Positions 6,367-12,636 of a stretch of 16,353 nt of DNA are shown here, piece by piece. Made by a program: the position numbers and the translations under genes. Each line of letters begins with the position of its first letter. Within the stretch, counting starts at the first letter, position 1. The stretch lies in IMG/VR virus record IMGVR_UViG_2718218139_000006; one strand, written 5' to 3'. The notes below the pieces were generated by a model. The model did not search any database, had not been told where the DNA came from, and worked only from the letters and a program-made list of their open reading frames with translations. This stretch comes from a virus. Lineage: Duplodnaviria > Heunggongvirae > Uroviricota > Caudoviricetes.

Positions 6367-6900
6367 TTAGCGTGGAAAGATTTGTGTAGTGTTCTGAATG
6401 CTCTCAGTAAATAGTAATGAATTATCAAAGGCATAGTAATATCTTTTATGTTCGTGGATATTTGTAACCCATCGGAAAACTCCTGCTTTAGCAAGATTTT
6501 CCCTGTATTGCTGAAATGTGATTTCTCTTGATTTCAACCTATCATAGGACGTTTCTATAAGATGCGTATTTCTTGAGAATTTAACATTTACAACCTTTTT
6601 AAGTCCTTTTATTAACACAGTGTTATCGTTTTCTAACACAATGTGAATATTATCTGTGGCTAGATAGTAAATATAATGTGAGACATTGTGACGTTTTAGT
6701 TCAGAATAAAACAATTCACAGTTTAAATCTTTTCGCACTTGATCGAATATTTCTTTAAAAATGGCAACCTGAGCCATTGGTAAAACCTTCCATGTGATAC
6801 GAGGGCGCGTAGTTTGCATTATCGTTTTTATTGTTTCAATCTGGTCTGACCTCTTTGTGTTTTGTTGATGATTTATGTCAAATATTAGGAATGTTTTCAA
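6367..6900 (-). CDS. Conserved lambdoid late-region hypothetical protein (at the position of the lambda ORF downstream of bor)
   Basis: 177-aa ORF co-oriented with bor. Its position relative to Rz/bor/cos matches an unnamed lambda ORF. Confidence 0.55.
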
Positions 6901-7062: not shown

Positions 7063-7269
7063 ATGAATAAAGAACAATCTGCTGATGATCCCTCCGTGGA
7101 TCTGATTCGTGTAAAAAATATGCTTAATAGCACCATTTCTATGAGTTACCCTGATGTTGTAATTGCATGTATAGAACATAAGGTGTCTCTGGAAGCATTC
7201 AGGGTAATTGAGGCAGCGTTGGTGAAGCACGATAATAATATGAAGGATTATTCCCTGGTGGTTGACTGA
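7063..7269 (+). CDS. Small conserved lambdoid hypothetical protein (68 aa)
   Basis: ATG ORF at the position of a small lambda right-end ORF. Confidence 0.45.
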
Positions 7270-7433: not shown

Positions 7434-7628
7434 TCATTCTTCATCACTTTTAATTGATGTATATGCTCTCTTTTCTGACGTTAGCCTCCGACGGCAGGCT
7501 TCAATGACCCAGGCTGAGAAATTTCCGGACCCTTTTTGATCAAGAGCGATGTTAATTTGTTCAATCATTTGGTTAGGAAAGCGGATGTTGCGGGTTGTTG
7601 TTCTGCGGGTTCTGTTCTTCGTTGACAT
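7434..7628 (-). CDS. Small basic protein, YlcI/DUF3950-like, possible ribbon-helix-helix fold
   Basis: 64 aa, MSTKNRTRRTTTRNIRFPNQMIEQINIALDQKGSGNFSAWVIEACRRRL...; Arg-rich N-terminus followed by a beta-alpha-alpha-like pattern. Resembles the small protein found next to cos/nohD in DLP12-type prophages (from memory). Confidence 0.5.
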   Translation of the reverse strand: MSTKNRTRRTTTRNIRFPNQMIEQINIALDQKGSGNFSAWVIEACRRRLTSEKRAYTSIKSDEE

Positions 7629-7827
7629 GAGGTTGCCCCGTATTCAGTGTCGCTGATTTGTATTGTCTGAAGTTGTTTTTACGTTAAGTTGATGCGGATC
7701 AATTAATACGATACCTGCGTCATAATTGATTATTTGACGTGGTTTGATGGCGTAGATGCACGTTGTGACATGTAGATGATAATTATTATCATTTTGCGGG
7801 TCCTTTCCGGCGATCCGACAGGTTACG

Positions 7828-7839
7828 GGGCGGCGACCT
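7828..7839. other. cosN: the 12-nt lambda cohesive-end sequence GGGCGGCGACCT (terminase nicking site)
   Basis: Exact 12-mer, preceded by lambda right-end sequence (...TCCGACAGGTTACG) and followed by lambda left-end sequence (CGCGGGTTTTCGCTATTTATGAAAATTTTCCGG). Confidence 0.9.
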
Positions 7840-7875: not shown

Positions 7876-7993
7876 AAGGTGTTTCCGTTCTTCTTCGTCG
7901 TAACTTAATGTTTTTATTTAAAATACCCCCTAAAAAGAAAGGAAACGACAGGTGCTGAAAGCGAGCTTTTTGGCCTCTGTCGTTTCCTTTCTC
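7876..7993 (+). promoter_or_regulatory. cosB: terminase small-subunit binding sites R3, R2, R1 with an intervening AT-rich IHF-type site (I1)
   Basis: Three copies of the CGTTTCC core: R3 about 7880-7895, R2 inverted about 7937-7952, R1 about 7975-7993, with an AT-rich segment at 7898-7927. Lies between cosN and nu1 as in lambda. Confidence 0.8.
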
Positions 7994-8016: not shown

Positions 8017-8536
8017 ATGGAAGTCAACAAAAAGCAGCTGGCTGACATTTTCGGTTCGAGTATCCGTACCATTCAGAACTGGCAGGAACAGGGAATGCCC
8101 GTTCTGCGAGGCGGTGGCAAGGGTAATGAGGTGCTTTATGACTCTGCCGCCGTCATAAAATGGTATGCCGAAAGGGATGCTGAAATTGAGAACGAAAAGC
8201 TGCGCCGGGAGGTTGAAGAACTGCGGCAGGCCAGCGAGACAGATCTCCAGCCAGGGACTATTGAGTACGAACGCCATCGACTTACGCGTGCGCAGGCCGA
8301 CGCACAGGAGCTGAAAAATGCCAGAGACTCCGCTGAAGTGGTGGAAACCGCATTCTGTACTTTCGTGCTGTCGCGGATCGCAGGTGAAATTGCCAGTATT
8401 CTCGACGGGATCCCCCTGTCGGTGCAGCGGCGTTTTCCGGAACTGGAAAACCGACATGTTGATTTCCTGAAACGGGATATCATCAAAGCCATGAACAAAG
8501 CAGCCGCGCTGGATGAACTGATACCGGGGTTGCTGA

Positions 8537-8562
<26 letters not shown>
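8017..8562 (+). CDS. nu1: Terminase small subunit Nu1
   Basis: 181 aa, MEVNKKQLADIFGSSIRTIQNWQEQGMPVLRGGGKGNEVLYD..., matching lambda Nu1 (N-terminal winged HTH). Confidence 0.95.
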
Positions 8563-12056
<3,494 letters not shown>

Positions 12057-12060
12057 CGTC

Positions 12061-12636
12061 ATGTCAGAGCAGAAAAAGACCTGGGCGGCTGAAGACCAGC
12101 TTCGCGGGAGCTGGATGGCAGGCCTGAAGTCCGGCTGGAGTGAGTGGGAAGAGAGCGCCACGGACTGTATGTTGCAGGTAAAAAGTGCAGCCACGCAGAC
12201 CTTTGATGGTATTGCACAGAATATGGCGGCGATGCTGACCGGCAGTGAACAGAACTGGCGTAGCTTCACCCGTTCCGTGCTGTCCATGATGACAGAAATT
12301 CTGCTTAAGCAGGCAATGGTGGGGATTGTCGGGAGTATCGGCAGCGCCATTGGCGGGGCTGTTGGTGGCGGCGCATCCGCGTCAGGCGGTATGGCTTACA
12401 GCCGTGTGTCGACTTTCTCCGGGGATTATCTCCGCGTAACTGACAACAAGGGGAAAACGCACGACGTGCTGACCGGAAGTGATGACGGTCGCCACAGCAA
12501 CACGTCTCTGGCGTGGGGAGCTGGCGTGCAGTTTAACCCGACCGAATCCGTGGCCATTGATATTGCTTATGAAGGCTCCGGCAGTGGCGACTGGCGCACT
12601 GACGGTTTCATCGTGGGTGTCGGTTATAAGTTCTGA
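12061..12636 (+). pseudogene. Chimeric ORF: internal C-terminal segment of tail tape-measure H fused in frame to the C-terminal about 80 residues of outer-membrane protein Lom
   Basis: First 110 residues (MSEQKKTWAAEDQLRG...GGAVGGGASASGG) match the C-terminal region of lambda gpH; the remainder (...SLAWGAGVQFNPTESVAIDIAYEGSGSGDWRTDGFIVGVGYKF) is the Lom/Ail-family C-terminus. Junction near 12388-12393. Confidence 0.8.

Follow-up and report, generated by a model that had tools for sequence, protein, structure and literature searches.

ylcI, a conserved gene beside cos in lambdoid prophages, may encode an FNR-controlled ribbon-helix-helix regulator

In this work, we examined the gene ylcI in a 16,353-nucleotide stretch of viral DNA (Caudoviricetes; IMG/VR record IMGVR_UViG_2718218139_000006), hereafter the window. 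The window is a defective lambdoid prophage that has lost its early region and still carries ylcI intact, 200 bp from the cohesive-end site cosN. We give somewhat more credence than doubt to an explanation in which the ylcI product is an FNR-driven ribbon-helix-helix (RHH) regulator made from the prophage, with the DNA between ylcI and cosN as its best-guess target. What is new here is the re-reading of a published FNR site as the probable promoter of ylcI, together with a gap in the annotation of phage lambda and the occurrence of related genes in phage satellites.

The ylcI gene and its product

The gene and the elements upstream of it are as follows.

7434-7628, minus strand: ylcI coding sequence, 64 aa, DUF3950, YlcI/YnfO family
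7636-7639, minus strand: GGGG, a putative Shine-Dalgarno-like run 8-11 nt upstream of the ylcI ATG, as read from the sequence
7662-7667, minus strand: GACAAT, a candidate -10-like hexamer likewise read from the letters, 4/6 to TATAAT, with A2 and T6
7689-7702, unstranded: perfect FNR box TTGATGCGGATCAA, centre 67.5 nt upstream of the ylcI ATG

ylcI is an intact open reading frame (ORF) of 64 codons with an ATG start, and its product is MSTKNRTRRTTTRNIRFPNQMIEQINIALDQKGSGNFSAWVIEACRRRLTSEKRAYTSIKSDEE. The protein contains nine Arg and four Lys, and six of the 16 residues at its N-terminal end are basic, in agreement with the original prediction, which had described a 64-aa protein with a basic N-terminus at this place. 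That prediction had also likened the protein to the DUF3950/YlcI family, known from the same position in DLP12 and without a known function, and profile searches bear this out: Pfam DUF3950 (PF13132) matches at 71.4 bits (E = 5e-20; cut-off 25), NCBIfam YlcI_YnfO_N (NF041551) at 36.6 bits (cut-off 30), and PHROG 949, a family without functional assignment, at E = 4e-35. The protein is identical to UniProt YLCI_ECO57, and its exact sequence is present on at least 1,000 contigs. RefSeq labels the same ORF ylcI, and the 631-bp region matches 4,679 of 5,426 complete Escherichia coli genomes. The function of YlcI/DUF3950 is unknown (PMC11551758), and in the literature that we found, ylcI is named solely in catalogues of uncharacterised genes and, paired with ybcW, among convergent overlapping transcripts. 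The present findings leave this classification, a known family member of unknown function, unchanged.

ylcI is a genuine protein-coding gene under purifying selection, because the substitutions among its alleles are overwhelmingly synonymous. Third codon positions account for 29 of the 38 polymorphic sites in the first 150 nt of 18 distinct alleles. For the most divergent pair, the proportions of synonymous (pS) and nonsynonymous (pN) differences over the first 50 codons are 26/34.5 and 6/115.5, respectively (pN/pS about 0.07). The first 50 or so residues hardly vary, and subtypes of 64, 66, and 77 aa have exchanged one C-terminal tail for another.

The DUF3950 core, IRF...NFS-x-WV-xx-AC, is present in YlcI, a single-domain protein within the 50-80 aa range of the family, as I15, R16, F17, F37, S38, W40, V41, A44, and C45, each invariant or nearly so in 49 diverse members. 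Nine residues of YlcI (R16, F17, I25, F37, S38, W40, V41, A44, and C45) are invariant across these members, among which the length of the inter-helix loop differs by up to eight residues. In a further set, one member has Val in place of Cys45 (codon at 7494-7496, in the second helix). This Cys could conceivably act in redox sensing or at an interface, in a protein that appears to be under FNR control.

Two copies exist in E. coli K-12, namely, ylcI in DLP12, adjoining nohD, and its paralogue ynfO in Qin, adjoining nohA. In phage lambda, the ORF is intact at 48,109-48,303 on the minus strand (2710-2904 within the locus fetched from NC_001416) and shows a single conservative difference, D30E. 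The RefSeq and GenBank reference records of lambda (NC_001416) omit it, and newer lambda records call it hypothetical.

An FNR site and a candidate promoter upstream of ylcI

The FNR box at 7689-7702, of the form TTGAT-N4-ATCAA, is the sole perfect match in the window, where 0.03 are expected. In DLP12 of K-12, an FNR box lies at the same place, again centred 67.5 nt upstream of the ylcI ATG. FNR binds there: Grainger et al. reported ChIP-chip peaks at "nohB" and "nohA/ydfO", confirmed by gel shift, with the site TTAAGTTGATGCAGATCAATTAAT (PMC1802558), which equals positions 7685-7708 of the window. That paper does not mention ylcI or ynfO and credits the sites to nohB and nohA/ydfO, and its lacZ fusions facing noh had low activity and little FNR effect (PMC1802558). 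The passages of Myers et al. that deal with these loci report FNR by ChIP-seq at "ylcI/nohB" and "nohA/ynfO" in all of their datasets, with a motif score of 16.68, the highest among the sites in the passages compared, and, for the DLP12 locus, name ylcI as the target they estimate (PMC3688515).

Prompted by this literature lead, we read a possible FNR-type promoter of ylcI by hand. On the ylcI strand, GACAAT begins 21 nt past the FNR box, and a -35 element is lacking. Transcription would start at about 7654-7655, which would give a 27-nt leader containing the GGGG run. With a gap of 21 nt between box and hexamer, the centre of the box would fall near -40.5 to -41.5, the geometry of class II FNR promoters, and the ylcI promoter accordingly appears to be of the class II FNR-dependent kind.

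The box stands at a fixed distance in 100 of 103 lambdoid upstream regions, with variation confined to its N4 spacer, a count that tells little because conservation is 95-99% across the entire ylcI-cosN block. Two chromosomal orphan genes of the family are more telling. One, from Salmonella enterica subsp. diarizonae (L185), is flanked by sopB/IpgD-like and C69 peptidase genes, and the other is from Citrobacter amalonaticus (L218). In each, a perfect FNR box (about 7925-7938 in its locus) has its centre 69 nt upstream of the ATG, and a -10-like hexamer (TAAAGT or GAAAGT) comes 21-23 nt after the box. The rest of their upstream DNA does not align with the window. Perfect FNR boxes occurred in none of 5,000 random 150-nt windows from the same loci. 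Upstream of most orphan members, FNR matches are at background level. Taken together, FNR probably drives ylcI in the lambdoid lineage and in some orphan lineages. Short GTAAC/GTTAC inverted repeats also follow the -10-like hexamer in both L185 and L218.

Predicted fold of YlcI

An AlphaFold2 monomer model of YlcI, built from an alignment of 21 homologues (pLDDT 70.6), consists of a basic N-terminal arm (residues 1-12), an extended segment at about 12-18 (with RNIRF at 13-17), a helix at 19-32, a GSGN turn, and a second helix at 37-63. This order of elements is that of an RHH monomer, in which the strands can pair just in a dimer. The top Foldseek matches, in the PDB and among the BFVD viral models, were mostly RHH proteins (Arc, NikR, CopG, MazE6/9, ParD2, HicB, and mycobacteriophage "RHH DNA binding" proteins), and superposed with a root-mean-square deviation of about 2 Å over about 40 residues and TM scores of 0.45-0.63. 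In an hhalign comparison, RNIRFP of YlcI aligned with FNLRWP of Arc, which places the base-contacting N11 and R13 of Arc on N14 and R16. A profile search of the PDB gave the RHH protein CdbA, in the same register, as the best match (E = 0.49), and RHH_6 matched one of 22 family members (E = 0.09). We consider an RHH fold of YlcI quite likely, and from this predicted fold it would follow that YlcI binds DNA.

A Fur box and a promoter facing cos

On the other side of the FNR box, the following elements lead up to cos.

7765-7792, plus strand: sigma-70-like promoter GTGACA-16-TATCAT, 10/12, facing cosQ, cosN, and nu1
7776-7796, unstranded: Fur box, with the palindrome ATGATAAT-A-ATTATCAT (7776-7792) and three mismatches to the 19-bp consensus GATAATGATAATCATTATC (7778-7796)
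7798-7804, plus strand: cosQ (GGGTCCT), by alignment; lambda equivalent 48,473-48,479
7828-7839, plus strand: cosN, 12-nt cohesive end GGGCGGCGACCT, 200 bp from the ylcI start codon

We take the GGGTCCT element to be cosQ. The Fur box overlaps the sigma-70-like promoter and lies 88.5 bp to the right of the centre of the FNR box, which is also the distance between the FNR and Fur sites at nohA and nohB. Those published Fur sites score 25.3 bits at nohB and 22.3 bits at nohA, the latter with gel shift and in vivo titration (PMC2189734). The element GTGACA-16-TATCAT thus probably corresponds to the Fur-regulated promoter region of nohA/nohB, and because the published sites match that of the window, a Fur-controlled promoter would read across cos into the terminase genes of lambdoid prophages. 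The Fur site is also found in lambda itself.

The spacer between ylcI and cos contains two palindromes, ATCAATTA-N17-TAATTGAT (7698-7730) and the ATGATAAT-A-ATTATCAT already listed. Both were considered as an operator for YlcI and rejected, as they are absent near the near-identical ylcI of a phage of the HNH type. Nor can either be ascribed to YlcI, since the former overlaps the FNR box and the latter is itself the Fur box. The original prediction had missed the FNR and Fur sites of the spacer, which are the best functional clue at this locus.

Prophage neighbourhood

Three neighbouring genes frame ylcI and cos.

8017-8562, plus strand: nu1, small terminase subunit (Phage_Nu1, E = 7.5e-101), divergent from ylcI
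8537-10462, plus strand: A, terminase gene, on the strand opposite to ylcI
7063-7269, plus strand: ybcW, convergent with ylcI

From left to right, the window carries an integrase fragment, an IS3-type transposase, Q, S, R, Rz, bor (minus), ybcV (minus), ybcW (plus), and ylcI (minus), followed by cos, nu1, A, W, a split portal gene, a tape-measure/lom fusion, stf, and tfa. As foreseen, ylcI is divergent from nu1 across cos and lies opposite to the terminase genes. It is solitary: 164 bp of non-coding DNA follow the gene, and then the convergent ybcW. In K-12 RNA sequencing data, the ybcW and ylcI transcripts overlap, and the pair is listed as an "excludon" (PMC12288877). Searches of the ylcI 3' region with Rfam and RNA folding gave no family match and no unusual RNA fold.

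In lambdoid genomes, ylcI lies between the lysis/bor region and a nu1 homologue on the opposite strand, as in DLP12 and in RefSeq genomes. The distance from ylcI to cosN is fixed at 200 bp in every fetched lambdoid locus with upstream sequence, so the arrangement beside cos is conserved in other prophages. ylcI, the spacer, cosQ, and cosN form one block that is 95-99% conserved among lambdoid loci, and its flanks vary, with cosB and nu1 on the right and ybcW and ybcV on the left.

Decay of the prophage is evident elsewhere in the window. The integrase fragment abuts the IS3-type transposase (984-2140) within 1-2140. Within 10662-12636, the portal gene is broken into pieces of 312 and 135 aa, and a 191-aa ORF joins the C-terminus of the tape-measure protein to that of Lom, which indicates that most head and tail genes have been deleted. 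The ybcV homologue (DUF1398; 6367-6900, minus strand) is a 177-aa ORF from TTG, compared with 136 aa in RefSeq E. coli. PHROGs calls this family a "head protein", which looks mis-annotated, its strand being opposite to the late operon.

Distribution of the DUF3950 family

A homologue search yielded 141 cluster representatives at E < 1e-3. The matches of an earlier search were mostly error-ridden lambda contigs some 3.5 kb long and were not used to gauge diversity. Lambda right-end DNA, often in contigs of this size, is present in "genomes" of unrelated taxa such as Kitasatospora, Cohnella, Brevibacillus, and Pedobacter and in the 3,566-bp Arcanobacterium "plasmid" CP136411.1 (L143-L171, L180). 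Such contigs are presumably nanopore control DNA or lambda spike-in contamination, and the errors in these copies make YlcI look more diverse in protein databases than it is. Lambda-control contamination aside, all genome loci fetched are from Enterobacterales or a Pasteurellaceae-like taxon.

The family occurs in four contexts: lambdoid late regions, phage satellites, chromosomal orphans together with one conjugative-element-like site, and one Enterobacter gene. In the first of these contexts, an HK97-like prophage carries a near-identical ylcI 41 bp from an HNH gene, upstream of the genes for the small (TerS) and large (TerL) terminase subunits. Among the 92 divergent loci, 68 are satellite-like, with a primase gene on the other strand upstream, an integrase gene downstream, or both. 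In an annotated satellite, int and an AlpA-like gene come first, then two DUF3950 genes that are encoded on the opposite strand, and then a repressor-family gene that heads a primase-TerS-capsid operon, so that the DUF3950 gene is divergent from the repressor-family gene at the head of the main operon. A satellite with two DUF3950 genes is embedded in a prophage with a ylcI of its own. No lambda-type cosN, searched for as an exact 12-nt match, was found close to the gene in divergent relatives, whether in satellites, at chromosomal sites, or in a defence island.

In two proteins from satellites (L005, 10001-10363; L004, 4714-5103), which share 44% identity, DUF3950 is joined to the first 50 or so residues of a Terminase_2 small terminase. 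We take this segment to be a helix-turn-helix (HTH); the part for oligomerisation and TerL binding is missing. The TerS part is 64% identical to the TerS of the helper. Such fusions occur on at least 280 contigs and in 5 of 99 inspected loci, a count that includes loci fetched for carrying the fusion. The fusion could be a decoy that binds cos or pac, or a regulator.

Several satellites resembling phage-inducible chromosomal islands (PICIs) have inserted into the late genes of lambdoid prophages (L005, 3,900-11,900; L135; L113; L124). One of them interrupts TerL and leaves a 93-aa N-terminal fragment, and others lie directly after a gpD-like gene. These insertions fit the published class of "helper-embedded PICI" (PMC10111431). 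In Enterobacter hormaechei (L223, 9001-10690), the DUF3950 gene overlaps the start of a dGTPase defence gene found by PADLOC (E = 7e-67), which is followed by an AEP-like gene, and it is divergent from a SymE toxin gene. This DUF3950 gene may be a regulator of the defence operon.

Proposed role of YlcI and its alternatives

In the explanation that we favour, lambdoid phages carry ylcI as an accessory gene that runs antisense to the late operon and is transcribed independently. YlcI would most likely fold as an Arc/CopG-type RHH dimer and bind DNA through its basic N-terminal arm and a beta-ribbon formed around T12, N14, and R16, the last of which is invariant. It would act as a regulator of transcription, most likely a repressor. 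A class II FNR-dependent promoter would mean that YlcI is made from the prophage under low oxygen. A Fur-repressed promoter in the same 200-bp spacer would read across cos into nu1 and A, which makes this divergent control region the best guess for the target of YlcI. The effect there can only be guessed at and may be autoregulation, silencing of transcription into the terminase genes, or both. DUF3950 genes recur in positions that fit a regulator: they head an operon, diverge from a repressor gene, or lie in antisense orientation within a long operon.

Several results weigh against this explanation. None of the Foldseek matches to RHH proteins is significant (every E at or above 0.38), hhalign gives the Arc alignment a probability of 10%, and searches of the PDB with 21- and 49-member profiles yielded nothing significant. 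No Pfam RHH family matched YlcI when 22 members were scanned at E up to 10, and the model is of a monomer and of moderate confidence. Of the RHH-like pattern noted in the original prediction, the topology, the top-ranking folds, and weak in-register alignments with Arc and CdbA have therefore stood, and a family match to RHH, CopG, or Arc has not. A search of the spacer between ylcI and cos identified no operator for YlcI, and a consensus scan found no minus-strand sigma-70 promoter upstream of ylcI. The lacZ fusions of Grainger et al. point towards noh alone, with the upstream primer inside ylcI (PMC1802558). Table S9 of Myers et al. lists both loci without an expression change that depends on FNR, in glucose minimal medium, which is one growth condition (PMC3688515), and reads from near-identical paralogues may be hard to assign. 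The same source names nohA among the operons in which repression by Fur may mask the action of FNR. Satellite members have no FNR boxes upstream, matches being at background level, and the ylcI of the HNH/Terminase_2-type phage has a different upstream region with neither FNR box nor palindrome. The proposed target also cannot be general, because in orphans and satellites neither a lambda-type cosN nor a homologue of lambda Nu1 adjoins the gene.

The conserved block of ylcI, spacer, cosQ, and cosN, with its fixed distance to cosN and variable flanks, invites the alternative that YlcI is an accessory factor of packaging, which binds DNA by cosQ/cosN, or Nu1, and modulates terminase or the choice of cos. 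The near-identical ylcI just upstream of the HNH-TerS-TerL module of the HK97-like phage and the satellite fusions to the N-terminal segment of small terminases agree with this. However, most family members are not near a lambda-type cosN or a lambda Nu1 homologue, and loci outside the satellite-like majority lie amid housekeeping or defence genes. ylcI is also antisense to the late transcript, from which the packaging genes are expressed, and the TerS fusion is rare. Minimal cos fragments package without the ylcI region. A packaging role of YlcI is therefore improbable in our judgement. A role at cos or in terminase function as a property of the family, which had been raised for this protein, does not agree with the divergent relatives, and the conserved block and the rare fusions to the small-terminase HTH keep a link to packaging open with low probability. 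We see a similarly small chance that YlcI serves in cross-talk between helper phages and satellites, by repressing satellite operators, by being a signal that the satellite senses, or the reverse. A phage YlcI could act on satellite operators because related, putatively RHH proteins sit in PICI-like control regions. Outside the lambdoid prophages of E. coli, a satellite is the commonest home of a DUF3950 gene; there the gene is antisense, between int/alpA and the repressor-family gene, with the primase operon next, and one satellite with two such genes is embedded in a prophage bearing ylcI. On the other hand, the phage and satellite subfamilies are just 35-45% identical, and a shared DNA specificity is not evident, because the residues flanking the invariant Arg differ (RNIRFPN compared with KGIRFPH or KNIRFED). 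There is no experimental hint of such cross-talk, and the satellite literature that we found does not mention DUF3950.

Two further alternatives carry far less weight. That YlcI is an RHH antitoxin, or regulates a toxin-antitoxin or defence module, is suggested by its small size, RHH-like predicted fold, and prophage location, as well as by the Enterobacter homologue at the defence dGTPase and SymE genes. Nevertheless, ylcI is monocistronic both in the window and in every lambdoid locus, a conserved partner is lacking among 80 lambdoid loci, PADLOC gives no defence-system hit for YlcI, and its C-terminal tail is short and variable, with no toxin-binding domain. The proposal of an antitoxin-like regulator fails because there is no partner gene: the gene is solitary and convergent with ybcW, with no toxin partner in any context, and we regard this alternative as very unlikely. 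Least probable of all is that the ORF has no protein function and that its sequence is kept for a cos-proximal role of the DNA or as an antisense RNA against the late transcript. Constraint at the DNA and protein levels is hard to separate within the lambdoid clade, given the conservation of the block from ylcI to cosN, and the convergent transcription overlapping ybcW in K-12 would suit an antisense RNA. Against this stand the low pN/pS and mostly synonymous substitutions, the homologues at 35-57% identity that keep the invariant residues in unrelated DNA contexts, and the lack of an Rfam match or unusual RNA fold in the region.

A broader version of the FNR-driven regulator would make YlcI an oxygen- and iron-linked prophage regulator, produced under FNR control in the anaerobic gut. 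It would bind the spacer between ylcI and cos and so gate the Fur-repressed promoter, or would act on control regions or cos sites of the PICI-type satellites in which its homologues, including the fusions to a TerS HTH, are found. Lambda would thereby gain an unrecognised regulatory gene that couples host physiology to the expression of packaging genes or to the conflict between helper and satellite. We put this forward as a speculation that is unlikely to hold.

Significance

ylcI is one of the few conserved genes of lambda that are still without a function, and it is absent from the RefSeq annotation of lambda. Most complete E. coli genomes carry ylcI, frequently more than once. An FNR site with a very high score and in vivo occupancy precedes the gene, which also lies beside one of the strongest predicted clusters of Fur sites in K-12. 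In earlier work, both sites were credited chiefly to nohA and nohB, which are defective terminase genes, and no regulatory effect was found there. Assigning the FNR site to ylcI would give a simple and testable account of a "silent" site of a global regulator. This re-assignment would also suggest that, near cos, lambdoid prophages sense how much oxygen and iron there is, and the satellite homologues and TerS fusions point to a possible link to helper-satellite biology.

Comparison with known systems

Class II FNR-activated promoters have the box near -41.5, and the candidate ylcI promoter resembles them in its perfect box, a -10-like hexamer at the right distance, the lack of a -35 element, and FNR occupancy in vivo. 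It differs in that its start is a predicted one and that the sole genome-wide test, in the tabulated data of PMC3688515, found no FNR-dependent expression.

Arc and Mnt of phage P22 are RHH proteins of the immI region and, like YlcI with its predicted RHH-type fold, are small phage proteins encoded inside the late region. The beta-strand motifs of Arc (FNLRWP) and YlcI (RNIRFP) are in register, with Asn and Arg at the base-contacting positions, and two helices with a G-x-S/N turn, predicted in YlcI, are common to both. The sequence similarity is not significant, however, and YlcI has no adjacent ant-like target gene. YlcI also has an invariant Cys and an "NFSxWV" motif in helix 2, which are absent from Arc and Mnt.

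Among the small regulators of Gram-negative PICIs and capsid-forming PICIs (cf-PICIs), such as AlpA and the packaging-redirecting Rpp, the DUF3950 genes find a counterpart in their location within the int-alpA-primase control zone of satellites. The satellite fusions of DUF3950 to the DNA-binding domain of TerS recall interference proteins that mimic TerS. DUF3950 has no homology to AlpA, and its possible role in satellites is deduced from position alone.

The closest relatives are YlcI of DLP12 and YnfO of Qin. YnfO differs from YlcI solely by a longer, unrelated C-terminal tail (77 aa). The protein of the window is of the same length as YlcI of K-12 and lambda and one residue away from them. 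Like ylcI of DLP12, the gene lies between ybcW and nohD/nu1 by cos, with FNR and Fur sites upstream in both. There is no difference in kind from K-12 YlcI: it is the same gene in another, defective lambdoid prophage.

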